A stretch of 64,000 nt of DNA from an uncultured Parachlamydiaceae bacterium (GCA_963742415.1 CAVULX010000003.1:384001-448000); one strand, 5' to 3'. Counted from the stretch's first letter, positions 15,230-31,723 are shown. Notes: generated by a model not told the origin, from the letters alone. Program-made: numbers and translations.

Positions 15230-15685
15230 CTATTCAAATTGCCGTTTAGTTTTAGGGTATCGCATGGTGGCCAACTCATCCAAGGCGTTCTTTTCTACGT
15301 TAAGGTTAAGAGTTTCCCATTCACCATATTTTTTGTCTCGCAAGTTTTCTATAATTTTCCGTTTTTGCATTGCCTTCATGACCTCTCTCCTTCTTAACTC
15401 TAAAATCGCTTGCGCTTCCCGAACGATAATTCGCTGGTGATCGATTTTCTTTTTAAGCACCTCTAAGTAATCGTAATTCATCGTCAAGGATTGGGGATGG
15501 ACATTGTTTTTTTGCAAAACACGAATGTGATCTGTAACTCGATCAAAGTCGCGATGAAATTTTTCTAATATCATGGACATTTTTTGCAATATTAAATGGG
15601 CCTCAAGCAGGTTTCTGTGAGCGATTTCTTCCTTCAAATGCCTAACTTTAAGCAAGGAGGCGAGATTAAAATTAAATTTTTTCAT
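15230..15685 (-). CDS. fliJ: Flagellar export protein FliJ-like
   Basis: MKKFNFNLASLLKVRHLKEE N-terminus; RKIIENLRDKK...EKNALDELA C-terminus; overlaps the fliI stop. Confidence 0.8.
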   Translation of the reverse strand: MKKFNFNLASLLKVRHLKEEIAHRNLLEAHLILQKMSMILEKFHRDFDRVTDHIRVLQKNNVHPQSLTMNYDYLEVLKKKIDHQRIIVREAQAILELRRREVMKAMQKRKIIENLRDKKYGEWETLNLNVEKNALDELATMRYPKTKRQFE

Positions 15686-16994
15686 TCTTTACGATTTCTT
15701 TTAAAAGCTTTTGCGTCATCTCAAAAGCAAACGACTCATTTGTTCCTTGCGACAAAAAGGATCTAATTCGGCCAATTAACATCACAGCTTCGTCAATTTT
15801 AGCATTTGATCCAGCCACATAGGCGCCAATGTTGATCAAGTCTTCAGCATCTTTATACACCTGCAAAATATCCCTTAAACGACCGGCCATATAATATTGC
15901 TCGGGTGTCGTAATAGCCAGCATCAGCCTAGAAAGGCTCTGTAAGACGTCTATGGCAGGATATTGGTTGGCTGAAGCTAATTTCCTGGAAAGAACAATGT
16001 GTCCATCTAGTATCGCCCTTACGGTATCTGCAACAGGATCATTCATGTCATCCCCTTCAACGAGGATTGTATAGATCCCCGTAATGACCCCGTGGGCAGA
16101 ATTTCCAGCCCGCTCTAAAAGTTTTGGCAAGGTTGCGAATACGGAAGGCGTATATCCCCGCGTGGCGGGAGGTTCCCCAATGGCTAAACCTATTTCTCGT
16201 AACGCCATAGCATAACGGGTGATGGAATCCATCATGAAGACGACATTTTTTCCTTGATCTCGAAAAAATTCGGCAATAGCTGTTGCAGTGTAAGCCCCTT
16301 TCGTTCTTAGCAGCGCCGCTTGATCAGAGGTTGCGACTACAACCACTGAACGGGATAAACCTTCCGGTCCCAATTCCCGTTCGATAAATTCACGCACTTC
16401 CCTTCCACGTTCTCCGATTAAAGCGATCACGTTTATATCTGCAGTGGACATTTTGGCTATCATCCCCAAGAGGGTTGATTTTCCCAAGCCGGCGCCGGAG
16501 AAAATCCCTAATCTTTGCCCTCTTCCTATGGTGCAAGTGGAATCGATCGCTTTGATTCCGGTCGATAAAACTTCGGAAATTAATTTACGCTTGAGAGGGT
16601 GGGGAGGGGGAGCCATGATAGGATAGTATTTTTCTGCTTTGATCGGCCCTTTGTCATCGATGGGATTTCCCACAGCATCCAGAATTCTTCCACACATTCT
16701 TTCCGATACAGCCACCAAAGGGACTTTTTTTGTCGGATAGACTTCGGAGCCCGGCGCTATATGGGTCATTTCTCCTAAAGACATTAATAAGGATTTATTA
16801 TCTTTGAAGCCAACCACTTCACAAGGGATAGCTTCTCCCTGCCTATTGAAAATGTAGCACAACTCACCCAGGTGGACTGCAGGGCCGGCCGATTCGATAA
16901 GAAGACCGATGATTTGTGTGACAACGCCACTTGTGGATAATCCCGACCATTTTTGGACCGCTTCGATTTCATTTTTTAGTGAGAAAGTAGACAT
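15672..16994 (-). CDS. fliI: Flagellar-type export ATPase
   Basis: Walker A GAGLGKS, ALIGERGREVREF, MDSITRYAMALREIG, GEPPATRGY, DGHIVLSR; context between fliH and fliJ. Start placed at ATG 16994. Confidence 0.92.
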   Translation of the reverse strand: MSTFSLKNEIEAVQKWSGLSTSGVVTQIIGLLIESAGPAVHLGELCYIFNRQGEAIPCEVVGFKDNKSLLMSLGEMTHIAPGSEVYPTKKVPLVAVSERMCGRILDAVGNPIDDKGPIKAEKYYPIMAPPPHPLKRKLISEVLSTGIKAIDSTCTIGRGQRLGIFSGAGLGKSTLLGMIAKMSTADINVIALIGERGREVREFIERELGPEGLSRSVVVVATSDQAALLRTKGAYTATAIAEFFRDQGKNVVFMMDSITRYAMALREIGLAIGEPPATRGYTPSVFATLPKLLERAGNSAHGVITGIYTILVEGDDMNDPVADTVRAILDGHIVLSRKLASANQYPAIDVLQSLSRLMLAITTPEQYYMAGRLRDILQVYKDAEDLINIGAYVAGSNAKIDEAVMLIGRIRSFLSQGTNESFAFEMTQKLLKEIVKNEKI

Positions 16995-17324
16995 AAAAAT
17001 TTTAAGAGATAAACCCATCACTCAGGCTTATGTAGAAATATTTATATTCTCTTTTACTGTCAACCAAATGTTCAAACTAGGAGGGAGTTTACAAAGTCCT
17101 AAGTTCTTCATTATTAACATTCTTATTTTTTTCAGTTTTTTTAATATTTTAAAAAAAATCAAATCTTTTTTGTAAAGAAAAATCTATAATTTTTAACTAA
17201 AAATGGTTTAAAAATGGGCTTTTTGATTTCAGTTTAAATAAAATATTATTATGTTATAATTATATATAGATTGTAGAGGATATATCGATTTTAAAAGCGT
17301 AAGCTTTTTGGAAGGAGAAAAATT

Positions 17325-17633
17325 ATGAGTTCCAATGTAAATAATACATCATCAAGCACAAGTGATCCACTTGATGATCTCGCAATTTTTTACACAAGTA
17401 ATGCAAATAACAAACAACAACAAGATTCGATGGATCCTACAGATCCTACCAGTATCATGTATGATCCCACTTTGGATCCTTGCAGTCCAAAATTTGGTGC
17501 CGTTAGCGCTGCAATTAATGGCCCGCAAGCTGTTAATGCTGTGAATAACAACACGGTAAATCCTATAGCCGTTGATGATGATAACGATAGGGCTGGCCGG
17601 AGAAATTTACGCCGCGTGGTCGATAGGATCTAA
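17325..17633 (+). CDS. Small N/S/D-rich hypothetical protein on the opposite strand between fliH and fliI
   Basis: RBS aaggag; extended -10-like tgttataat upstream; 102 aa of low complexity. Confidence 0.65.
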   Translation: MSSNVNNTSSSTSDPLDDLAIFYTSNANNKQQQDSMDPTDPTSIMYDPTLDPCSPKFGAVSAAINGPQAVNAVNNNTVNPIAVDDDNDRAGRRNLRRVVDRI

Positions 17634-17695
17634 AATAACTTCCACGTGTTGTTGTCCGTATCCATTCCCAAATTATAAGTAGGTGTTTTTTTTGT

Positions 17696-18397
17696 TTATG
17701 ATGATAAAGTTAAAATTTCCAAATCAGATAAAAGACGATTAAGGTCAAAATTGACCAGTCCTAATGTTGTTTCTAAGCGACAACTGCCCCTTTCCATCCA
17801 GGGTGTTGAGATAAAGTTGACATCTTTTAAATCTTCCCGTTTATAGCCGAGCGCAGAAAGGTGGTTTTGCACCATTTGCAGGTCTTCCTGCGATAAAACA
17901 ATATCGATAGGGACATCTTTTAAGAAGGACTTTGCTTGGGTCAATAATTTTTCTAATAAACTGTAAAAGATCTCTGGATTGGTTAAGTGAGCACGAAGTA
18001 TTTTTTCGCAAACTGCCAAAGAAAATTTGATCAGTTCGGGCTTCACCAGCTCAAACATTTCTTCTTTTCTCATTTGAAAAGTTGAAGCGGTGACATTAAG
18101 GAGTTCGGCAGCTGACTTTAATTCGTCCCTAACATTAGCCACACCTTCTTTATATCCAATCTCTAAGCCTTCGCTCTTGCCTGCTTCGTACCCTTGCTCA
18201 TGCCCCTCTTTCAAGCCTTGAGAATGCCCTTTTTTTTCGGCCATTTTTAAGAGTTTTTGAAGTGTTTTTACAGAAGGGGGTTCTGAAGTCTGTTCTGCCT
18301 CTCCGTTCTCTTCTTTTACCCCTGAATCTTGTCCGTAAAAGACAGCCCCTTCAATCTTAGCCCCGTGGATCACTTTTTTAGATTTTGAGACGTTCAT
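17696..18397 (-). CDS. fliH: Flagellar export ATPase regulator FliH
   Basis: GxxxG repeat run KGHSQGLKEGHEQGYEAGKSEGLEIGYKEG; C-terminal RGSCRLETTLGLVNF; ATGA overlap with fliF. Confidence 0.88.
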   Translation of the reverse strand: MNVSKSKKVIHGAKIEGAVFYGQDSGVKEENGEAEQTSEPPSVKTLQKLLKMAEKKGHSQGLKEGHEQGYEAGKSEGLEIGYKEGVANVRDELKSAAELLNVTASTFQMRKEEMFELVKPELIKFSLAVCEKILRAHLTNPEIFYSLLEKLLTQAKSFLKDVPIDIVLSQEDLQMVQNHLSALGYKREDLKDVNFISTPWMERGSCRLETTLGLVNFDLNRLLSDLEILTLSS

Positions 18398-20373
18398 GGG
18401 GCCTCGCCTTGCACTTCTTGCATAGCATGATGGAATTTATGTGAAATTTCAGGATTGAACATTTTTATTTTTTCAATGATGACCCGTTGATGCCTTTCGG
18501 GTAAGCTATTAAAGATAGATGCAGCCACTTTGAAGCTCTCAGCCATTTTAAGTCCATACTCCAAAGAGGTTCCCCCCAAAATCCCTGGAAGAGATCCTAG
18601 TAATAGTTCAATCTGATTCGGATCTGTTTCATCAAACTGAGCCATTTCCACCAGGACGTGAGCTTGCAAATCGATCGGCATCCTATTTAACACAACCGAA
18701 GCTCGCTCTTGAGGTAATGAATACAGGATTAAAGCAATGGTTTGAGGAGATTCCTGACCAAGAAATGCAGCAATTTTAGAAGGTTCCCCTTCAGTCAGAA
18801 TTTGCTTAATTGACAGCGGTTCATCTGAGTGCCCTGTTTTTCCGTCATTCTTGCTCAGAATGTTTGGCCGATCTTCCAACTGGGCTTTAATTGCTTCTAG
18901 AACCCCTTCTAGATCTTCTAATCTTTTTTTCTTAGTTCCTTCTTCAGCGGCTTTTAAAACCGAAACCCTTTTGGAATGTTGTTGCACGCGGAACATCATA
19001 TAGAAAATCCCGAAAACGCCCAAAGTGATGATCGCCACAAGCGCTGTGGTTATCGAATTATTTTCCGACCCTGGGGAAATTGCCTCTATCATGACTGGAG
19101 GGGGAGGGATCGGCGTCCGGTCGAACTTAATAAAATTAACAGACTGCGAAACATGAGCTGTATATCCTTTGAGGATGACTTCGAGCTGACTTTCGATATT
19201 TTTCTTCAATTTTTCTTCATTCGAAGCAATCTGATTTTCGTTTTGCTCTACTCCTTTAGCCGGAGCAAAAATTTGGTCGTCGATTAACACACCTATCGAT
19301 AAGGCATCTATTTTGCCGGGCACACTGGTAATTTTGACATGGTCTACGGGCACTGCCATTTGTCTAAACTGTTGCGTTGCGAATAGCTCGGGTTGATTCT
19401 GAGAGGAAGGATTGCCTCCGTTTTGTTCGGAAGATTTCGATTGCTCTTTTGCTTTAATCGGTTGCTCGCCTGTCTCAGAAATAGACGTGACAACGGACGA
19501 CCCTAAGCTAACTCCGTCAACCGAGCCGGTGTAGACTTTTCTTTCTTCAGAAATTTTATTTCTATTCATTGTCACTTGCACAGTACTATAAAAGTTGCCT
19601 GCGCCCACCACAGTCGTTAGCATCCCATCAATTTTTGCTTTTAAATATCCTTCTGCAGATAACTCCGCATTGCGAATCGAATCCAAGCCCCCTTCAGGAT
19701 CTATGGCTTGATAGAGGTGCCCATTAGTGTCGGAAATCGCCACCATATTCCCGGTAAGGCCTCTGACCGCTCCGGCAACATGAAAGGTAATGGCACGCAG
19801 TTCTTGAGAATTTAAACGAGCGCCCGGTTTCAAGCTTAAGATGACAGAGGCTTTAGCTTTGTAGTTTGCAGCCCCAAAAGGACGGGGAGGGGGAACATCA
19901 AGAATGACGTTAGCGCTTCGTACATTCTCAAATTGGGAAATATCATTTTCAAGCTGCCCTTTAAGTGCCCTTAATTCAAGAACCTGGAGCTCTTTTTCCC
20001 CTTTAATCCACGTGCTGCTATCGAAAAGCTCAAATCCTTTTTTCGTTTGCGTTTTTGGCAATCCGTTGAAAGCCAACTCTGCTCGCACCTGGTGTTCTTT
20101 CTCTTTTGGAATCCATATCCCTTTGTTTTCGGAAATTTTATAAGGAATATTTGCGCTTTCAAAATAGGCTTTAATTTGTGCAATATCAATGCTTTGCATC
20201 CGTTCAGGCGAATACAGCATCACATAGTTCATTGAATTGGACATGATCAGCACGACCGTCCCTAGCAAAATAAGTAGCCCTAGAATAGCAGCAAAAGCGG
20301 TTTTTTGAGAAAGCTTAAGATCCAGCCAAAAAGTTTTTAGCTGCTGTAAAAAATTTGCGAAAAAGGAATACAT
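18394..20373 (-). CDS. fliF: MS-ring protein FliF fused to a truncated FliG (middle domain plus ARM-C)
   Basis: TM1, GLPK..GFELFD, RALKGQLENDI, ASVILSL, VAGAVRGL, RBM3-like region, TM2; then QESPQTIALILYSL...AASIFNSL...NPEISHKF matching FliG EHPQTIALILSYL...AAEILN...DPELAEEI. Confidence 0.85.
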   Translation of the reverse strand: MYSFFANFLQQLKTFWLDLKLSQKTAFAAILGLLILLGTVVLIMSNSMNYVMLYSPERMQSIDIAQIKAYFESANIPYKISENKGIWIPKEKEHQVRAELAFNGLPKTQTKKGFELFDSSTWIKGEKELQVLELRALKGQLENDISQFENVRSANVILDVPPPRPFGAANYKAKASVILSLKPGARLNSQELRAITFHVAGAVRGLTGNMVAISDTNGHLYQAIDPEGGLDSIRNAELSAEGYLKAKIDGMLTTVVGAGNFYSTVQVTMNRNKISEERKVYTGSVDGVSLGSSVVTSISETGEQPIKAKEQSKSSEQNGGNPSSQNQPELFATQQFRQMAVPVDHVKITSVPGKIDALSIGVLIDDQIFAPAKGVEQNENQIASNEEKLKKNIESQLEVILKGYTAHVSQSVNFIKFDRTPIPPPPVMIEAISPGSENNSITTALVAIITLGVFGIFYMMFRVQQHSKRVSVLKAAEEGTKKKRLEDLEGVLEAIKAQLEDRPNILSKNDGKTGHSDEPLSIKQILTEGEPSKIAAFLGQESPQTIALILYSLPQERASVVLNRMPIDLQAHVLVEMAQFDETDPNQIELLLGSLPGILGGTSLEYGLKMAESFKVAASIFNSLPERHQRVIIEKIKMFNPEISHKFHHAMQEVQGEAP

Positions 20374-21626: not shown

Positions 21627-24600
21627 TTGACTAAGACAATTTATTCAGAGGAAGAGATTAAGCAAATTTTGCAAGCCATTTTTCTTGAAAAAAAGCATTC
21701 CAAAGATGTGAAGTTAAAATTGCAAGACAAGACCAATGAATGTGCTCGTTTGCAACATGAGCTTGAAGAACTTCAGAAAAAGATGCAAACGATCCCTTTA
21801 GATGATGTCCGCAAATTGAAAAATCTCCTTTTTGCATTTAAGAAAAAACATGCCCAAGCCCTTTCCTCTATAGATGAAAAAAACAAACAGCTTGCTCAAC
21901 TAACTCAAACAACTTCCGATATAGATGATTTAGAAAGTGAAAACCGTGCTTTAATCTCTCAAATATCAGCTATTAAAGAAAAATTTTACAAAATTCAAAA
22001 CGCAGCCCCCTCGGAAAAAGAGATTAATGTCATCTCAGAAAAGTTCCAAGCAAAGTTGAATGCAGCTAACGAAATCTTAAATAAGGCTCAAGAAGAGCTC
22101 AACGAAGAGCAACAGGAAAAGGTCCATTTTAAAGCTAAGTTGGAGGAGATGACTTCTCTAAAAGAGCATTTCGAAAGACAAAACCTCGACTTAGTCCGGC
22201 AAGTTCATCATCTTGAGCCATTCAAAGAGATGACCTTGACAGCACAACAAAAGATGGCTGAATTTGAACGGATGAGGGAAGAGGATTTCGATGAAATTGA
22301 GAGCTTAAAAGAAAAAATTTCATCTAATACATTGACTGAAGACCAATTACATCTCATTGAAGACCTGAAAGAGCAATTACTTGAAATCAAAGGGGAAAAC
22401 CAAACACTAACCCACCAAGATCTGACCTTAAGGCAACGTTTTGAACAATCTGAAGGGGAACTCACCCTTGTTAAAGAAAAACATTTTCAACTTGCTGATA
22501 AATTAAAACACAGTGAATTGTGCCAAAGCGAAAATCTTCATCGAATTGAAGATCTCTTGATTCAAGTTAAGCAAATGGAGGTATTGAAAGCTTTCCTGAC
22601 CCAAGAAGAGGAGCGAAATAAGGAATTAACCCAAGAACTGAATAAAATAAAAGAGTTCTCGCAAAAAGACCAGAAACAGATTGATGATTTGTTGTTTCAA
22701 ACAAAACAAGTAGAAACATTGAAATCTCTGTTGTCTCAAAGGGAAGAACGAAATAGAGAAATAACTCAAGAACTAAATAGAGTAAAAGAACTCTCTCAAG
22801 GAGACCGGCAGCAGATTGACGATTTAGTGATTCAAACAAAGCAAATAGAGTCCTTGAAGTACTTGTTGGCTCAGCAAGAAGGAAAAAACAAAGAGTTATA
22901 TCAAGAGCTGAATCAACTAAAAGAACTCTTTGAAAATGAACATCTGCAAATTTCAGATTTGTTAATCCAAGCACAGCAAGGGGAAACACTCAAATCCTTA
23001 CTGGCCCAACAAGAAGAAACAAATCAAGAATTGCATCAGGAGCTCAAACGAGCGAGAGAATTCTCTGATAGAGATCGCCAGCAAATTGAAGACTTGTTGG
23101 TCCAAGCAAAACAAGGGGAAACTTTCAAATCGTTGTTGGCTCAGCAGGAAGATATCAACAAAGAATTAAACCTCGAACTGAATCAAGCTAAAGAAATTTC
23201 TGAACGGGATCAACATCATATCGAAGATCTGTTGCTTCATACAAAACAAATTGAGAATTTGAAATCCTTATTTGTTCAACAAGAAGAAGCAAATAACGAG
23301 TTGAATCGGGAGCTGCAACAAGCTAAAGAATTCGCTGAAAGAGATCGCCAGCGAATTGAAAAAATTGCCGCACAACTATTGGAAAAGGACAAAAAGATTT
23401 ATGATTTGCAACATTTGGAAGTACGCCTTAAACGTCTGACTGAGCAAAAGCAAGCCATCGAACAAGAGTTAGAAAAAGTTCAAAATGAAGCCATAAACCG
23501 GGAAAATGTCCTCAAAGAACATCAACAACATCAAGTGCAATTAGAAAGGGTGATCCAATTTCTCAGAGAAAAATCGGAAGGGGCTCGTTTAGAAGTCACT
23601 TCCCTGCAAGAAGAGATTCAGAAATCAGCAGAATCGTTTTTAAAGTTAACAAACGACTTGAAAACAACCAAAGAAGCGCACGATCAACTCGCAGAACAGC
23701 TGAAACACGAACAAGAAGAAAAACAAGAAGTGCATCAGGAGATTACTACCCTGCATTTGCAGGTGGAACAATTGCGAAGCCATCTCACTTCTACACAGCA
23801 AGAACTTAACGAACAACAGTCTGGTTATGAAAAAGCTAAAAAACAGTTGGCTCAACTTGAATCCCAAAATCGGGTATTTTCCGAAACCATTTCCGAAAAA
23901 AACAAAAGTATCGAATTTTTTGAAAAAGAGACAGCTCTGATCAAACAGTCGCTTATCCGTGGTTTGCGAGAAGCTAAAGAGCTTGAGGGGCATTATGCCG
24001 AAGTTGCCAAAGAAAAAGCCTCCATGCAAGCTAAACTGCACCAATCTCAACATCTCTTAGATAAACAAAGAAATGAGATCCACGAACTACAAGAAAAAAT
24101 AAGAAGCGCCGAATCTAATACCTCATCGGCCTATCAGAATATTGAGCAGCTCAATCAACGGCTTGCTGAAAAGCAAACAAATCTTCAGCAACAAGAGGAA
24201 ATAATTAAAGAAAAAGAAGCAACTTTACAAAGTCAGTTGCAACAAATCGAGCTCTTAAAACAGGAGCAATTATCTTTACAGGGAGGATTATCCCACGCTA
24301 AAAATATCATAGAAGAAAAAGAAAATGAGTTGACCCAAGCCCAGCACCATCTCGCCAAAAAAGTCAAAGAAGCAGCCCAGCTTGAAGACAAAAATGAGGA
24401 ACAAAAACATTTAATAGCAGAGCTTCAAGAGACCCTTGTAAAAAATAAAATCCGAATTGCTGAGTTGCAAACAAGCGTCGACATTCAAGAACAGCAATCC
24501 AAACAATCTCAAGAACGGCTTCAAGAAGCCTTAAAAGCAGCTCGTACGCTTGAAACAAAATGGGAAGAAAAATATGGATCCCTTTCCGAAAAATGGGAAG

Positions 24601-24872
24601 CAGCTGAGGGTCGTATCAAAGAACTTGAGAAAATCGAAGAAAAGCAAAAACATTTGCAAGGTTTGCTTTCAAGCCTAGGAAGTTTTTTTGAAGGCCCCAT
24701 TCCGGCAACACCGGTAGAATCCTCTAAATCAACAAGGGGCTCGTTTTTAGAGGAACCCAGAAGGGCACCCCAACCGACAGAAAAGCCGCAAGAGCCTTCA
24801 AAGTCTCCCTATCAAAACCTTTTTAATATGCCCAAACCGCCAGGCCGACCACGCCAAAACTTTTTGGAGTAG
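21627..24872 (+). CDS. Very long coiled-coil protein with six internal 45-aa repeats
   Basis: 1081 aa, E/K/Q/L-rich, Pro-rich tail; TTG start after ggag RBS. Confidence 0.85.
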   Translation: MTKTIYSEEEIKQILQAIFLEKKHSKDVKLKLQDKTNECARLQHELEELQKKMQTIPLDDVRKLKNLLFAFKKKHAQALSSIDEKNKQLAQLTQTTSDIDDLESENRALISQISAIKEKFYKIQNAAPSEKEINVISEKFQAKLNAANEILNKAQEELNEEQQEKVHFKAKLEEMTSLKEHFERQNLDLVRQVHHLEPFKEMTLTAQQKMAEFERMREEDFDEIESLKEKISSNTLTEDQLHLIEDLKEQLLEIKGENQTLTHQDLTLRQRFEQSEGELTLVKEKHFQLADKLKHSELCQSENLHRIEDLLIQVKQMEVLKAFLTQEEERNKELTQELNKIKEFSQKDQKQIDDLLFQTKQVETLKSLLSQREERNREITQELNRVKELSQGDRQQIDDLVIQTKQIESLKYLLAQQEGKNKELYQELNQLKELFENEHLQISDLLIQAQQGETLKSLLAQQEETNQELHQELKRAREFSDRDRQQIEDLLVQAKQGETFKSLLAQQEDINKELNLELNQAKEISERDQHHIEDLLLHTKQIENLKSLFVQQEEANNELNRELQQAKEFAERDRQRIEKIAAQLLEKDKKIYDLQHLEVRLKRLTEQKQAIEQELEKVQNEAINRENVLKEHQQHQVQLERVIQFLREKSEGARLEVTSLQEEIQKSAESFLKLTNDLKTTKEAHDQLAEQLKHEQEEKQEVHQEITTLHLQVEQLRSHLTSTQQELNEQQSGYEKAKKQLAQLESQNRVFSETISEKNKSIEFFEKETALIKQSLIRGLREAKELEGHYAEVAKEKASMQAKLHQSQHLLDKQRNEIHELQEKIRSAESNTSSAYQNIEQLNQRLAEKQTNLQQQEEIIKEKEATLQSQLQQIELLKQEQLSLQGGLSHAKNIIEEKENELTQAQHHLAKKVKEAAQLEDKNEEQKHLIAELQETLVKNKIRIAELQTSVDIQEQQSKQSQERLQEALKAARTLETKWEEKYGSLSEKWEAAEGRIKELEKIEEKQKHLQGLLSSLGSFFEGPIPATPVESSKSTRGSFLEEPRRAPQPTEKPQEPSKSPYQNLFNMPKPPGRPRQNFLE
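22545..23354 (+). repeat. Six in-frame tandem 135-bp (45-aa) repeats
   Basis: Unit consensus IxDLLxQxKQxExLKSLLxQQExxNxELxQELxxxKExSxxDxQQ, six copies. Confidence 0.9.
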
Positions 24873-27083: not shown

Positions 27084-27125
27084 GCAACTTAATAACCTGT
27101 TACTTTAGATTTGTGGGATGTTGTC

Positions 27126-28115
27126 ATGATGCAAATAACTACAGTGAAGAATTTTTATCGCCCCTTTCCAACATTGACAAAACTTTTGTTATTTTTATGC
27201 TGCATTGGAATCTTTACTAGTTGCGGAAGCCAAAAAGTCATTGTCAGTGGATTAAGCCAAAAAGAAGCGAATGAAATTATTGTATTTCTTGCCGGCAAAG
27301 GGATCGATGCCAACAAGGCTGAAACCACAGCAGCAGCGGGAGCTGGCGGGGCTAAAGTGCAGCTCTATGACATCTCAGTTGATCCCGTAAGAGCGATTGA
27401 AGCCATGGCGCTCCTCAACCAGGCCGGATTGCCAAGAACCCGCGGACAAAACTTATTGGAAATTTTCGGCAACGTCGGCTTAGTCCCCTCCGATTTGGAG
27501 CAAAAAATCCGGTATGAAGCCGGGTTAGCAGAGCAGATTGCAAGCACAATCAGAAAAATTGATGGGGTTCTCGATGCCGAGGTGCAAATTTCTTTTCCTC
27601 AAGAAGATCCTCTTAACCCAGGTAAATACATAGGCAAAATTACAGGCTCTGTCTTCGTAAAACATTCCGGAATTTTGGATGACCCAAATAGCCATTTGAT
27701 CACCAAGATTAAAAGGTTAGTGGCTTCCAGCGTCACGGGATTAGATTATGATAATGTAACCGTCATCCCTGTCCGAGCACGCTATAATGAAATTCAACCA
27801 GGAACGACAGGTGTCTTAACCGAAGAAGAAAAACAATATGTCGACGTCTGGTCTATTATTCTCGCTAAAGATTCTGTGATGAGGTTTCAAATTATCTTTT
27901 TCTCCTTTGTCGTGATCATTTTTATTTTGCTATCCTTTTTTGTCTGGATAGGCTGGAAAATTCATCCCCTCTTGAATCAATATGGAGGGTTCAGGGCCTT
28001 ATTTCATTTGCATCCTCTTAAACTAAAAGAAACTCCTGAACAAAAAGAAGCTGAAACGAAAGAAGAAACCACTGCCGAAAAAGAAGAAACAGACAAAGAT
28101 GTGGACATCACCTAA
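27126..28115 (+). CDS. sctJ: T3SS inner-ring lipoprotein SctJ/CdsJ
   Basis: Lipobox FTSC; GLSQKEANEIIVFL, GLPR, GLVPS, IRKIDGVLDAEVQIS; C-terminal TM. Exact start uncertain (27111/27126/27129). Confidence 0.95.
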   Translation: MMQITTVKNFYRPFPTLTKLLLFLCCIGIFTSCGSQKVIVSGLSQKEANEIIVFLAGKGIDANKAETTAAAGAGGAKVQLYDISVDPVRAIEAMALLNQAGLPRTRGQNLLEIFGNVGLVPSDLEQKIRYEAGLAEQIASTIRKIDGVLDAEVQISFPQEDPLNPGKYIGKITGSVFVKHSGILDDPNSHLITKIKRLVASSVTGLDYDNVTVIPVRARYNEIQPGTTGVLTEEEKQYVDVWSIILAKDSVMRFQIIFFSFVVIIFILLSFFVWIGWKIHPLLNQYGGFRALFHLHPLKLKETPEQKEAETKEETTAEKEETDKDVDIT

Positions 28116-28127
28116 TGGGGTTGAGCT

Positions 28128-28988
28128 ATGCAGCCAAAAAGTGCTGTTTTCATGAAGGTCTTAATTAATCGCTTTCATAAAGGATCTCTGCAATCACTTT
28201 TAGGGTGTTTTCCAACGGAGGAAGCCAAAGAAATAGCCAATGTCGATGTCCCTTCGAATGACCCCTCCATTGGATTAAAAACGGCATCAGAAAAAATTTC
28301 TTCTATCGACTATACTTGGTTTCTCCCTTCACTACAAAAGCTTTCTAAAAATGCGCAACAAACCGTTGCTGCTGCCTTTCCTGAACCCCACTCCTCCAAG
28401 CTCCTTCAAGCTCTAAATCTCCCCTCTTCTGCTGAAACTCCCAGCCCAATTGTAAAAAATTTTTTATTGTTAAAATGTTACAAAAACCTGCCCGGAGCCT
28501 CAGAGGTGTTACCCAAGCAATATTTACCTCAAACCCCCTTGAGCTTGATCTCCAGTATGAATAAGCGGGAGCTTGTGGAGGTGATCGATTTTCTTGGTCT
28601 TCACGATCTTGCAGATGAACTCAAACATGTGGTCGATCAGAAAACATTAAAAAATGTCTACGCCTGCTTAAATGCCAAAGAACAACAATATCTGAAATAT
28701 TGCATCCGTCAGAAAGAAAAGGTGGTTTTACCCAGTTTAGGGATCGAACGTTGGAGCGGCAATGTCGATAAGCTAAAAAGCGTCCTCCAAAGCAGAGGGA
28801 TTATTAGGCTAGGCAAAGCTCTTTCTGGAGAGAATCCCGATTTCATTTGGCATGTTGCGCATAACTTAGATTCAAACAGAGGGCAAACTTTACTCAAGTA
28901 TTATTCTGAAAAGCCTTTGACCAATATCACACCTGCACTCGCCCAACAAACACTTAACGTGATTAATATATTAAAAAAGAAAGAGTGA
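28128..28988 (+). CDS. Probable T3SS sorting-platform protein SctK/CdsK
   Basis: Position between sctJ and sctL; IDYTW and LGLHDLA motifs typical of the chlamydial protein at this position. Confidence 0.7.
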   Translation: MQPKSAVFMKVLINRFHKGSLQSLLGCFPTEEAKEIANVDVPSNDPSIGLKTASEKISSIDYTWFLPSLQKLSKNAQQTVAAAFPEPHSSKLLQALNLPSSAETPSPIVKNFLLLKCYKNLPGASEVLPKQYLPQTPLSLISSMNKRELVEVIDFLGLHDLADELKHVVDQKTLKNVYACLNAKEQQYLKYCIRQKEKVVLPSLGIERWSGNVDKLKSVLQSRGIIRLGKALSGENPDFIWHVAHNLDSNRGQTLLKYYSEKPLTNITPALAQQTLNVINILKKKE

Positions 28989-28992
28989 AACC

Positions 28993-29643
28993 GTGAGCAA
29001 AAAGTTTTTTTCATTTATCCACGAAGGCAGTGTCCACATTTCCCCCAAAAAGAAAGTCGTTCCCAAAGAGGAATTTTCAAGGCTTGTTGACTCGTATGAA
29101 GTTCTAGAGCAAGTTAAAAAAGATGCCGAACAATATCGCATTGATGTGGCTGTCGAATGTGAACAACTCAAAGAACAGGCTCAAAAAGAAGGATTTGAAG
29201 AGGGGTATAAGAAGTGGCTTGAATACACCGCCCAGCTCGAAAATGAAATTGTTAAAGTCCGTCAAGACTTAGAAAAATTCCTCGTTCCGGTGGCTTTAAA
29301 AGCTGCTAAAAAAATTGTTGGCAGGGAATTAGAAGTTTCAGAAGATGCTATTGTTGACATCGTCTCCAACTCTTTAAAAGCCGTTTCACAACATAAAAAA
29401 ATTACCATCTATGTCAACAAAAAAGATCTTGAAGTCTTGGATAAATACCGCCCCCGCTTGAAGCAAATTTTCGAAAGTTTGGAAGTTTTATCTCTTAGAG
29501 AACGTGCTGACATAGCCCCCGGAGGTTCAGTCATAGAAACAGAAGGGGGCATTATTAATGCTCAGCTGGATAACCAGTGGAGAGCTTTAGAAAACGCTTT
29601 GGAAATTATCGTAAAGAAAAAGCAACCATCAGGTGAGCATTAA
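28993..29643 (+). CDS. sctL: T3SS stator SctL/CdsL
   Basis: AQKEGFEEG, ALKAAKKIVGREL, GGSVIETEGGIINAQL. Confidence 0.93.
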   Translation: MSKKFFSFIHEGSVHISPKKKVVPKEEFSRLVDSYEVLEQVKKDAEQYRIDVAVECEQLKEQAQKEGFEEGYKKWLEYTAQLENEIVKVRQDLEKFLVPVALKAAKKIVGRELEVSEDAIVDIVSNSLKAVSQHKKITIYVNKKDLEVLDKYRPRLKQIFESLEVLSLRERADIAPGGSVIETEGGIINAQLDNQWRALENALEIIVKKKQPSGEH

Positions 29644-29645
29644 TT

Positions 29646-30572
29646 ATGAGGATTTTCCCTTTTTACTTTAGAGGAGGTTCAACCCAGAATGGAATGAAGA
29701 TTGCCTCCCTTTTTACAATCAAGTCATTTTTTGTATGCTGTATTATTTTGGCCATGTTAGGGATGGTGCCTGAATCGCTTTATTCCCAAGCAGCTCCGGC
29801 CAGGCCAGCCCCTGCAGCAACCCCAGCGCCGGCAAAAGGAGCTCCGCAGCAAGCTAATCAAGCCGCCCAAAATGCTTTAAATGCTCCTTTTGACAATTTT
29901 AAAAGGCCTTCTGTCATTACTCAAGCTGTAGCTTTGACCATCATGTCCTTGCTGCCTTTTATTATCATGATCTTAACCTCTTTTCTGAAAATTGTGATCG
30001 TCCTTTCCCTTTTACGCAGCGCATTGGGGGTTCAACAAGCACCTCCTAACCAGATCATCAACGGGGTCGCATTTATGCTCAGCCTCTTTATTATGTATCC
30101 GACTGTTTTGAAAATGTACGATGCTGCAGAAAAAGTCATCGTCGAAACACGAGCCCCAGACTCGATCCTGTCCCCTCAATCTTCTCAATACATAATCGAA
30201 GTCGCCGACCAAGCTAAAGAGCCTTTACGGGAGTTCCTGAAAAAAAATTCAGCGACAAAGCACCAAGCCCTATTTTATCGGATCGCTTACCGAATTTTAC
30301 CCGAAAACTACCGCCCCACTTTAAAGCCTGATGATTTTATGATCCTTGTTCCTGCATTCATTACAAGCCAACTCAAAGAAGCTTTTGAGATCGGCGTGTT
30401 GATCTACATCCCCTTTTTCGTCATCGATCTTGTGACATCCAATGTTTTGCTTGCTATGGGGATGATGATGCTTTCTCCTGTGACGATTTCAATGCCCTTA
30501 AAACTGTTCTTGCTCGTGATGCTTGATGGATGGACGCTCTTGGTTGACGGTCTTGTTTCAACATTTAGATAA
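29646..30572 (+). CDS. sctR: T3SS export gate SctR
   Basis: TSFLKIVIVLSLLRSALGVQQAPPNQ, AFEIG, GMMMLSP, FLLVMLDGW. Confidence 0.96.
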   Translation: MRIFPFYFRGGSTQNGMKIASLFTIKSFFVCCIILAMLGMVPESLYSQAAPARPAPAATPAPAKGAPQQANQAAQNALNAPFDNFKRPSVITQAVALTIMSLLPFIIMILTSFLKIVIVLSLLRSALGVQQAPPNQIINGVAFMLSLFIMYPTVLKMYDAAEKVIVETRAPDSILSPQSSQYIIEVADQAKEPLREFLKKNSATKHQALFYRIAYRILPENYRPTLKPDDFMILVPAFITSQLKEAFEIGVLIYIPFFVIDLVTSNVLLAMGMMMLSPVTISMPLKLFLLVMLDGWTLLVDGLVSTFR

Positions 30573-30593
30573 ATCTAAAGGAGTAAAGGAAAT

Positions 30594-30869
30594 ATGTTCC
30601 AAACACAAGTCATCCAATTGGCTTATCAAGGTCTCCTTTTGATTCTCATCTTGTCTGCACCCCCGATCCTCATCAGTATGTTTTTTGGTATCCTTGTGGC
30701 GATCTTTCAAGCCGCGACACAAATTCAGGAGCAAACCCTCTCATTTACGATTAAACTAGTTGCTGTCACCTTGACGCTGATGTTTATGGGGGGATGGCTG
30801 GGGGCTCAAATCATGCAATTTGCGACCAATATTTTCACACACTTTCCCCAATGGAGCTTCAGCTCCTAG
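30594..30869 (+). CDS. sctS: T3SS export gate SctS
   Basis: FQAATQIQEQTLSFTIKL. Confidence 0.96.
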   Translation: MFQTQVIQLAYQGLLLILILSAPPILISMFFGILVAIFQAATQIQEQTLSFTIKLVAVTLTLMFMGGWLGAQIMQFATNIFTHFPQWSFSS

Positions 30870-30883
30870 GAAGGTTGAGGGCT

Positions 30884-31723
30884 ATGGGACAAGATTACGT
30901 CACCATTTTTATGAATTCTGTCTTTGCCACAGGGGAAGTGACAGGATTATTGACCTTATTTTTTCTATTTTTAGCCCGGATGCTCCCGATTATCGCCTTG
31001 TCCCCCTTTTTTGGAGCACGCGTCTTGCCCCATCCAGTGAAGGTGTGTTTTGCCATTTCCCTTTTTGTCATCATGCTGCCCCAGCTATTGCTAGTGACGA
31101 CCACGCATCTTGAATTCAACTTTATGGCTCTTCTTTATCTTGTCAAAGAACTTTTTGTGGGATTTGCCTTAGGGTACCTTATCAGCATGCCGTTTATCAT
31201 CGTGCAAAATGCCGGCATCATCATCGACCACCAACGGGGGGGGGCTAGCTTAATGGTCAATGACCCGACCATTCAAAACCAATCCTCCCCACTAGGAACC
31301 CTCTTTAACTTTGTTTTGATCTATATATTTTTTACTATCGATGGTCCCTTTCTCTTTATCGATGCGATCGTTTCTTCTTATGAATTGATCCCTCCAGACC
31401 AATTTTTTAATACCCATTTCTTTTTCAAGGGTTCCGAATTTTGGCAAATGCAGATGCAGATGTTAAACAAAGTGATGATCATTTCTATTCGGCTAGCAAC
31501 ACCCGCCCTCCTCGCCATTTTAATGACAGATACGTTTTTAGGAATTGCTAACCGTTTGGCCCCGCAAGTGCAAATTACCTTTTTAGGGATGCCATTAAAA
31601 TCCCTTCTGGCACTGACAGTAATTTGCTTTGGATGGAGGCTATTTTCTGAAGAGCTTGTCAGGCTATCTTACGAATGGATTAACCTCTGTAAATACATGA
31701 TCACGATGTTCAAGCCGCCTTAA
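30884..31723 (+). CDS. sctT: T3SS export gate SctT
   Basis: ARMLP..PFFG, KELFVG, AGIIIDHQRG, GIANRLAPQVQI...PLKS. Start placed at ATG 30884. Confidence 0.95.
   Translation: MGQDYVTIFMNSVFATGEVTGLLTLFFLFLARMLPIIALSPFFGARVLPHPVKVCFAISLFVIMLPQLLLVTTTHLEFNFMALLYLVKELFVGFALGYLISMPFIIVQNAGIIIDHQRGGASLMVNDPTIQNQSSPLGTLFNFVLIYIFFTIDGPFLFIDAIVSSYELIPPDQFFNTHFFFKGSEFWQMQMQMLNKVMIISIRLATPALLAILMTDTFLGIANRLAPQVQITFLGMPLKSLLALTVICFGWRLFSEELVRLSYEWINLCKYMITMFKPP

Follow-up and report, generated by a model that had tools for sequence, protein, structure and literature searches.

A FliF-FliG fusion protein and a flagellar-type export gene set in an environmental chlamydia in which no flagellar motor genes were found

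We analyzed a stretch of 64,000 nucleotides (nt) from an uncultured Parachlamydiaceae bacterium (GCA_963742415.1 CAVULX010000003.1:384001-448000; hereafter the window), which forms G000:C3:384001-448000 of a 2.69-Mb genome in 4 contigs (G000) that is 84% complete by markers. At 18394..20373(-) an open reading frame (ORF) of 659 amino acids (aa) joins FliF in frame to part of FliG, and the genes downstream are those of the flagellar export ATPase complex. Such a fusion had been proposed in an earlier reading made from the DNA alone (the sequence-only reading), and Pfam, NCBIfam, alignments to solved FliG structures, an AlphaFold2 (AF2) model and Foldseek agree that it is real. The parts of the fusion and the genes that follow it are listed here, with positions counted from the first letter of the window and the basis of each call in brackets.

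18394..20373, minus strand: fliF::fliG' fusion ORF, 659 aa (ORF call, Pfam, NCBIfam, relatives)
20242..20298, minus strand: first transmembrane segment (TM1), residues 26-44 (hydropathy script)
19048..20238, minus strand: periplasmic MS-ring region, residues 46-442, with YscJ_FliF and YscJ_FliF_C (Pfam, NCBIfam, Salmonella FliF alignment)
18991..19047, minus strand: second transmembrane segment (TM2), residues 443-461 (hydropathy script)
18817..18990, minus strand: linker, residues 462-519, about 58 aa (alignment with chlamydial FliFs)
18577..18816, minus strand: FliG middle domain (ARM-M) and the next helix, residues 520-599, with ESPQT at 541-545 (Pfam, alignments, AF2, Foldseek)
18541..18576, minus strand: loop, residues 600-611, with Gly600-Gly601 (FliG alignment, AF2 model)
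18421..18540, minus strand: ARM-C-like segment, residues 612-651, starting at E612-S613 and ending at M651 (alignments, AF2)
17696..18397, minus strand: fliH, 233 aa, with an ATGA overlap with the fusion ORF (ORF call, Pfam, NCBIfam)
17022..17695, no strand assigned: fliH-fliI spacer, 674 nt, AT-rich, with promoter-like sites on both strands (sequence scan)
17325..17633, plus strand: ORF of 102 aa in the fliH-fliI spacer, no family match (ORF call)
15672..17021, minus strand: fliI ATPase, 449 aa; FliI_clade2 635 bits, cut-off 629.8 (NCBIfam)
15230..15685, minus strand: fliJ, 151 aa; TIGR02473 57.1 bits, cut-off 50.45 (NCBIfam)

The fusion passes the fliF equivalog TIGR00206 of NCBIfam over residues 3-463 (152.6 bits against a cut-off of 129.75); Pfam places YscJ_FliF (PF01514) at residues 46-221 with 138 bits and YscJ_FliF_C (PF08345) at residues 252-381, and Salmonella FliF residues 39-291 align to its N-terminal part. 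Beyond TM2, FliG_M (PF14841) is matched at residues 531-590 with 62.3 bits (cut-off 25), and positions 114-238 of the 338 in the fliG profile TIGR00207 align to residues 525-651, with a score on that model of 59.9 bits, below its cut-off of 226.7. Residues 462-659 align to Thermotoga maritima FliG-MC (1lkv, E 7.6e-10), and the same tail also aligns to the FliG proteins of H. pylori, Salmonella and A. aeolicus, each alignment ending just short of the C-domain. For residues 505-659, AF2 run on an alignment of 18 rows gave a model with a mean predicted local distance difference test score (pLDDT) of 78, with values above 90 in the M domain and below 50 at residues 601-608 of the Gly-Gly loop. When this model was compared with the PDB by Foldseek, the 11 best matches were all FliG (probability 1.0, E 7e-5 to 8.5e-4); their TM-scores are low (0.32-0.36), probably because the M and ARM-C parts are placed differently relative to each other. 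A three-copy complex prediction of tail residues 519-659 scored 0.27 against a mark of 0.42, with the controls not folded, an outcome that counts neither for nor against ring formation.

As had been read from the sequence, the profile scan of the fusion finds FliG_M and neither FliG_N nor FliG_C. The only FliG_N (PF14842) match, at 22.8 bits, overlaps the M domain and so gives no separate N-domain, none of the reading frames between the FliF and FliG parts retains FliG_N coding sequence, and alignments of the fusion with 11 separate chlamydial FliGs begin at the first M-domain helix. At the other end, the ORF does stop where the MFxF hinge would begin: its C-terminus reads ...HHAM-QEVQGEAP, in which M651 falls on the M of the LMFVF hinge, leaving 8 residues after it. 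The tail of the fusion is a FliG M domain and ARM-C with neither FliG_N nor the torque domain. Of the C-terminal tail motif that unfused chlamydial FliFs share (L-x-D-L-E-x-x-L-x-A-I-K-x-x-L-x-x-x-P), the linker that precedes it retains the first half, and alignment shows that the distal, FliG-binding half of that tail, present in the unfused proteins, is absent from the fusion. Two short motifs were followed through the alignments, the FliM-binding motif EHPQR of the M domain and the Gly-Gly that FliGs conserve just before ARM-C. The first reads E-S-P-Q-T at residues 541-545, a change noticed in the sequence-only reading. The same reading had taken a Gly-Gly pair as part of a FliG-like linker, which proves mistaken, as Gly600-Gly601 lies at a non-homologous site and the conserved pair is E612-S613 in this protein.

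Downstream, the ATGA coupling of fliH to the fusion and the intactness of fliI and fliJ, both above their flagellar equivalog cut-offs, are as first described. The implied contiguity of fliH and fliI is not, since 674 nt separate them (17022-17695), where G215, another genome of the same family, has a gap of only 24 nt. The opposite-strand 102-aa ORF in this spacer is rich in N, T, D and P, its ATG is preceded by a Shine-Dalgarno-like GGAGAA, and searches of Pfam and the protein Atlas gave no match to it. A promoter and terminator scan yielded 13 promoter-like sites against 11.1 expected, which is no enrichment.

The genome carries two gene copies each of FHIPEP, FlhB/SctU and FliP/SctR. One set is that of the injectisome, with sctU-sctV-sctW on contig C2 and sctJ to sctT in the window; a chlamydial inclusion-protein family is also present. 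The other copies lie at two further loci on G000:C4, one carrying fliO-fliP-fliQ-fliR followed by csrA, the other carrying flhB and, some 600 nt further on, flhA with an flhF-like GTPase gene after it. FlhA is above its flagellar equivalog cut-off (820.9 against 772 bits), and for each of FlhB, FliO, FliP, FliQ and FliR the flagellar model outscores the Sct one. A second, flagellar-type export set (flhA, flhB, fliOPQR and fliHIJ) is complete, its parts being distributed as FliF-G', FliH, FliI, FliJ and FliE in the window, FliOPQR at the second locus and FlhB, FlhA and FlhF at the third. At the NPTH site, the FlhB of G000 has D-E-M-K, that of G215 D-C-D-K and that of G414, a third genome of the family, D-G-V-R, as against N-P-T-H in the SctU of G000 and N-P-E-H in solved Vibrio FlhBs. 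Without cleavage at this site, flagellar export does not switch from rod/hook-type substrates to those of the filament type.

The flhB-flhA gap holds an opposite-strand ORF of 138 aa with no family match (L016 9171-9587 (+)), a pattern like that found between fliH and fliI; the flhB and flhA genes of G215 are not adjacent. Directly after fliR comes a 101-aa CsrA homolog (Pfam 69 bits; L017 6021-6326 (-)), followed by a YbjN-family gene. CsrA is a post-transcriptional regulator of flagellar genes in other bacteria.

The remaining export-related features of the window are a fliE-like gene with its neighbor and the injectisome operon.

61379..61711, minus strand: fliE-like gene, 110 aa (Pfam, Atlas, relatives)
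60800..61195, minus strand: ORF of 131 aa downstream of the fliE-like gene, no family match, syntenic with a 134-aa ORF in G215
27111..31723, plus strand: injectisome operon with sctJ, a 286-aa ORF, sctL, sctR, a gap at the expected sctS position, and sctT

The 110-aa protein matches Pfam FliE below cut-off (17.1 bits, E 0.006), and 25 of its 30 matches in the protein Atlas belong to FliE family sets, with scores of 0.90-0.91. Among the 61 family genomes, it is 68% identical to a protein of G215, 61% to one of G414 and 39% to one of G404, which are genomes that also have a fused FliF, with weaker matches in G230 and G226; the gene order UDG - fliE - 131/134-aa ORF is kept in G215. A profile of five FliE-like proteins matches ORFs of six flagellated chlamydiae at 47-76 bits, in five of the six next to flgB/flgC-type matches. 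This ORF might instead be the injectisome SctI, against which we weigh that its best matches are the FliE of flagellated chlamydiae and that it is single-copy in G000 and G215, while the weaker matches described next tell against a firm choice. The same profile gives weak matches (26-39 bits, ORFs of about 102-161 aa) in 11 further family genomes, G230 apart as it contributed to the profile. Because some of these genomes lack FliF, FliE-like genes are not confined to genomes with the relic, and the weak ORFs could be orphan FliE relics or an injectisome inner-rod protein. Examples are G055:C1:2414793-2415062 and G235:C1:2845975-2846250; the absence of FliF was confirmed for G055 and G110.

The injectisome operon, said in the sequence-only reading to lie about 7 kb away, begins at 27111, 6.7 kb from the fusion operon. 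Its 286-aa ORF between sctJ and sctL (28128-28988 (+)) has no Pfam or NCBIfam match.

An inventory of G000 found no full fliG, motAB, rod/hook, flagellin, fliM or fliN. No FliG_C (PF01706) exceeded the cut-off in this genome (best match E 0.5), nor did a second FliG_M (a weak match at E 0.25), flagellin (Flagellin_N, PF00669; best 17.9 bits) or the rod/hook domains (PF00460, and Flg_bbr_C, PF06429, at best 14.4 bits), while the L/P-ring genes FlgH and FlgI were not searched for. FliM (PF02154) gave no match, and the FliM and FliN of G215, used as queries, find only SctQ, a 443-aa protein that is the sole member of the SpoA/FliN family found in G000. All three MotA_ExbB matches are TolQ/ExbB genes, each followed by TolR/ExbD, leaving no MotAB. 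For comparison, the PF00460 search returns 2-6 matches in each of eight flagellated chlamydial genomes.

To place the fusion among its relatives, we took 120 of its 189 word-index matches and classed them by length, precomputed Pfam domains and the length of the tail after TM2. Proteins of about 510-545 aa are FliF only, those of 600-685 aa are FliF with FliG_M, those of 753-754 aa (P0006, P0078) add FliG_C, and those of 414-445 aa combine a shortened FliF with FliG_M. The nearest relative among those listed is 52% identical, so synonymous sites would be saturated. G215 encodes a fused protein of 657 aa (47% identity), G414 a fusion of 754-755 aa with FliG_C, and eight further proteins of 600-685 aa carry FliG_M as independent occurrences; the relatives with the long fusion are uncultured, metagenome-assembled environmental chlamydiae. 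The C-terminus is trimmed to different extents, with a 685-aa relative ending just past the LFVF hinge, others lacking ARM-C, and forms of 340-460 aa keeping M only. The EHPQ(R) motif varies among the fused forms. The recurrence of one architecture in independent chlamydial assemblies, including a 2.26-Mb contig, means that the fusion is not an assembly artefact.

We compared 36 loci from species-representative genomes and four others (L019-L022). At 11 unfused chlamydial loci the order is fliF-fliG-fliH-fliI-fliJ and at the fused loci it is fliF::G'-fliH-fliI(-fliJ), a conserved order that shows an in-place deletion between neighboring genes. The fusion arose by a deletion between adjacent fliF and fliG that removed the distal FliF tail and FliG_N, the very elements that bind each other (Bergeron 2016). 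The torque-generating C-domain is lost as well.

Among 401 chlamydial genomes sampled across the phylum, 62 have FliG_M. These include 28 of the 30 genomes of family f4 (1.0-1.3 Mb, ORFs of 340-429 aa), which we take to be Chlamydiaceae, and all 23 of family f3 (ORFs of 345-462 aa); in the own family of the bacterium (f1, n = 45 in this sample) they comprise G000, G215 and one sub-threshold match. A separate FliG ORF of 349-394 aa occurs in 8/401 genomes, and these are exactly the 8/401 that have rod/hook domains, which were found in 0/23 f3, 0/30 f4 and 0/45 f1 genomes. FliM is present in 10/401, namely these eight, G215 and G347, and in none of the f3 (0/23) or f4 (0/30) genomes. FliM, the proposed partner of the EHPQ motif, was found neither in G000 nor in any f3 or f4 genome, a fused M domain being present in 23 of the 23 and 28 of the 30, respectively.

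A separate survey within the family (n = 61) found a FliF homolog in five genomes and a second full-length FlhA in four (G000, G215, G414 and G417). FliG_C exceeds its cut-off in two (inside the fusion ORF of G414 and in a separate 341-aa FliG of G417) and FliM is present in two (G414 and G215, the latter having both fliM and fliN), with rod/hook domains and flagellin in 0/61. Successive steps of reduction thus coexist in one family, from a fusion with C-domain and FliM (G414), through a fusion without C-domain but with FliM and FliN (G215) and a fusion with neither (G000), to total loss in most genomes. The FliG_C of G414 reads S-K-D-L...H-Q-I where separate FliGs have S-K-R-Q...D-E-L, a stretch that is presumably the torque helix.

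Three loci outside the fused series were also recorded. In G417 (C107, L022), one contig carries an unfused 536-aa FliF (27% identical), the 341-aa FliG (FliG_C 130 bits) and a flagellar FlhA; no FliM, rod/hook domain or flagellin was found in this genome, which has 6% contamination, and the contig may be foreign. G347, of family f29, has a FliM-like ORF (C171:2340-2900, 54 bits, 403 aa) and no FliG_M or rod/hook matches. At L042 2939-3949 (+), in one metagenome-assembled genome, a strongly diverged, unfused 336-aa FliG lies beside a 528-aa FliF; this FliG is altered in the N domain, the EHPQ site and the S-K-R-Q...D-E-L stretch, and the FliH of the locus is the closest to that of G000 (39%).

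A natural FliF-FliG fusion is not in itself new: a FliF-FliG(M) fusion in Chlamydiaceae has been published, with the suggestion that it may bind SctQ or be ancestral (Bergeron 2016 PeerJ). As far as the Chlamydiaceae form (C. trachomatis CT719 / C. pneumoniae Cpn0860) is documented in the cited text, the two share a single ORF with two transmembrane segments, a SctJ-like periplasmic domain, FliG_M after TM2 and neither FliG_N nor FliG_C. In both, a fliH-like gene and fliI come next, and the host genome is that of a chlamydia with an injectisome and no flagellum. The Chlamydiaceae protein differs in being about 330-342 aa, with a reduced periplasmic region and M only, whereas the one described here has 659 aa, a full periplasmic FliF, a remnant of the FliF tail and ARM-C, and scores 64.1 bits on model NF004606, for which the cut-off is 297. 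In the sections cited, the Chlamydiaceae literature names fliF, fliI and flhA (Bergeron writes 'FliL'), to which G000 adds fliE, fliJ, fliOPQR, flhB and flhF. In our literature search, neither the long form nor the truncation series turned up as described before, nor did fliE/fliOPQR/flhB/flhF in a non-flagellated chlamydia or the loss of NPTH, although supplementary surveys (Koestlbacher 2021, Dharamshi) may cover gene presence. What is new here is the long form with complete periplasmic FliF and ARM-C, within a graded truncation series and accompanied by a whole export set.

Other comparisons help to define the system. Laboratory FliF-FliG fusions share the one-for-one covalent joining, and the deletion-fusion type also lacks the FliF tail and part of FliG_N. 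Laboratory fusions, among them the Salmonella deletion-fusions, reportedly keep FliG_C and work in rotating motors, unlike the natural fusion, which has no hinge or torque domain and in whose genome no stator genes were found. A Vibrio FliF-FliG fusion exists as well, and PDB entry 8z4d has a chain named 'Flagellar M-ring protein, Flagellar motor switch protein FliG'. Complete flagellar sets are known from marine chlamydiae, flagella have been argued to be ancestral in the phylum (Collingro 2017) and a motile chlamydial ancestor has been inferred (Dharamshi 2023). With the flagellated environmental chlamydiae G000 shares its phylum, homologous genes (FliI is 67-75% identical) and the order fliF-fliG-fliH-fliI-fliJ, but in those genomes (8/401) FliG is encoded separately and at full length, and FliM and rod/hook genes are present; none of the three was found in G000. 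The secretin-less 'Myxo' type III secretion system (T3SS) of Myxococcales is similar in being a T3SS core without motility or outer-membrane-crossing parts; it was proposed as a flagellum-to-injectisome intermediate and argued to be functional from its conservation (Abby and Rocha 2012). The 'Myxo' system, however, belongs to the non-flagellar branch, whereas the G000 set is flagellar-type by every family score and would therefore be an independent, later reduction.

Taken together, our best reading, to which we give a probability of about 0.6, is that G000 carries a non-rotating, flagellum-derived export relic in a non-flagellated environmental chlamydia, beside an injectisome. A role of chlamydial flagellar relics in non-flagellar secretion was suggested earlier (Collingro 2017, Stone 2010), and a 2025 survey takes up the question of what use incomplete motors may be. 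Of the second, motorless export machine proposed in the sequence-only reading, the complete flagellar-type export set and the failure to find a motor stand; that the relic continues to function we can only infer from sequence. The long form is best explained as a probable intermediate in a reductive series that ends in the short Chlamydiaceae FliF-FliG(M) proteins. In a candidate mechanism, a membrane ring of FliF-G' would house the FliPQR/FlhB/FlhA gate, and the FliG stump tethered to each subunit could form a small cytoplasmic collar that stabilizes the assembly of ring and gate and contacts the FlhA cytoplasmic ring. FliH-FliI-FliJ would dock directly on FlhA and energize export. There would be no rotation and, as FlhB has no NPTH autocleavage site, no switch of substrate class; with FliE as the sole axial part detected, substrates would get no further than the periplasm unless some unrecognized outer conduit takes them on.

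Results from Chlamydiaceae are in keeping with parts of this scheme. In C. pneumoniae, FliF residues 271-341, the FliG-like tail, are required to pull down FlhA 308-583, and FliI binds FlhA, not FliF (Stone 2010); the pull-down is the one experimental clue to what the tail does. In the C. trachomatis work cited here, fliF, fliI and flhA fall with the T3SS genes on sigma54/sigma28 knock-down, so the short-form relic is at least regulated there. As the M domain persists in 51 f3 and f4 genomes in which no FliM was found, its retained role is arguably not FliM binding. A further-reaching version, which we regard as tentative and somewhat short of an even chance, is that G000 shows a functional intermediate of flagellar exaptation, an exporter without motor, C-ring, rod, hook or filament that retains the gate, the ATPase complex, FliE, FlhF and the tethered FliG stump and would act as a second, switch-less secretion machine next to the injectisome, delivering to the periplasm or by some outer route. 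The truncation series, from M with the C-domain through hinge only and M with ARM-C to M only, would then map how little FliG suffices to assemble MS ring and gate, with the M domain contacting FlhA rather than FliM.

The main rival is that these genes are leftovers of an ancestral flagellum en route to loss, with a fused tail that has no present function, and a number of observations that weigh against an active relic lead us to call it unlikely rather than remote. C-terminal truncation among the relatives is graded, and nothing else in the operon is as poorly conserved as the tail, with an identity to G215 of 28% as against 50% for periplasmic FliF, 34% for FliH, 40% for FliJ and 71% for FliI. 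The conserved Gly-Gly is lost, the ESPQT/EHPQ motif is degenerate, the FlhB NPTH site is gone, and FliM and FliN, both kept in G215, are missing here; degenerate motifs and missing FliM/FliN fit ongoing decay as well as a new role. The FliG_C of G414 is altered at the S-K-R-Q...D-E-L stretch, a foreign ORF separates fliH from fliI, and 56 of the 61 family genomes lack FliF, making the system dispensable in close relatives. Further points against the favored reading are that FliP, FliQ, FliR, FliO, FliH and FlhF score under their NCBIfam equivalog cut-offs, that every gene absence in G000 rests on an incomplete genome, and that junction lengths vary among the fused forms, P0007 retaining almost the whole FliF tail, so that a single origin of the fusion is not established. 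The likeness of P0007 to P0010/P0011 hints that fused forms are scattered among unfused ones, as recurrent fusion would have it. To say that selection preserved precisely the ring-scaffold parts is to read too much into the data, given the truncation series, the poorly conserved tail, the variable EHPQ and the missing Gly-Gly. Decay has nevertheless to contend with at least 13 ORFs at four loci that are open and full-length against family profiles, with FlhA, FliI, FliJ and FliF above curated equivalog cut-offs, and with a gene order conserved phylum-wide. Identities to G215 reach 71% for FliI and 68% for FliE, with 47% for whole FliF. The tail folds with high confidence in AF2, and the M domain is retained in 23/23 f3 and 28/30 f4 genomes, all without FliM.

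Alternatively, FliF-G', FliHIJ and FlhA may be spare parts that, at a certain point in development, join the non-flagellar T3SS or regulate it, for instance through contact of the FliG stump with SctQ. Two-hybrid data from C. pneumoniae, in which CdsL is bound by both FliI and FlhA, CopN by FliI and CdsU by FlhA (Stone 2010), a proposed FliG-SctQ contact (Bergeron 2016) and a model of an alternative non-flagellar T3SS with flagellar proteins cited in Collingro 2017 lend it some weight, as do SctQ being the only SpoA/FliN-family protein found in G000 and the injectisome operon being just 6.7 kb away. We think it quite unlikely for G000, which, unlike Chlamydiaceae as reported, has its own complete gate (FliOPQR, FlhB, FlhA, FliE, FlhF) and no need to borrow, while G215 retains its own FliM and FliN. 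That an assembly error or frameshift joined two separate genes is highly improbable, given a linker of about 58 aa alignable with other fused proteins, no FliG_N remnant in any frame and the same architecture in independent assemblies, among them the 2.26-Mb contig. A working, rotating flagellum with parts too divergent to detect might hide in the unrecovered part of the genome, which is 84% complete by markers, or behind short Pfam models, which can miss divergent proteins. It is just as improbable, because the same searches find 2-6 rod/hook matches and FliM in each of the eight flagellated chlamydiae, and in G000 the sole FliG homolog has no torque domain and no MotAB was found.

Less novel than first thought, the export relic that we favor is still informative on how a flagellum is dismantled. 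The FliF-FliG fusion of pathogenic Chlamydia has been an oddity without a known history or role, and G000 and its relatives supply missing steps, displaying in-place fusion, after which the torque domain, the hinge, ARM-C and some of the periplasmic ring disappear step by step. They offer a testable case of the use of half a flagellar motor and of the emergence of a secretion-only machine from a flagellum, and they suggest that the partner which the FliG middle domain has conserved in chlamydiae is FlhA and not FliM.

One further gene adjoins the fliF operon region. It is an ORF of 1081 aa at 21627-24872 (+), containing an extended array of similar repeats, each about 40 aa in length (…DLLIQ-KQ-E-LKSLL-QQEE-N-EL-QELN…), and having the look of a coiled-coil repeat protein.

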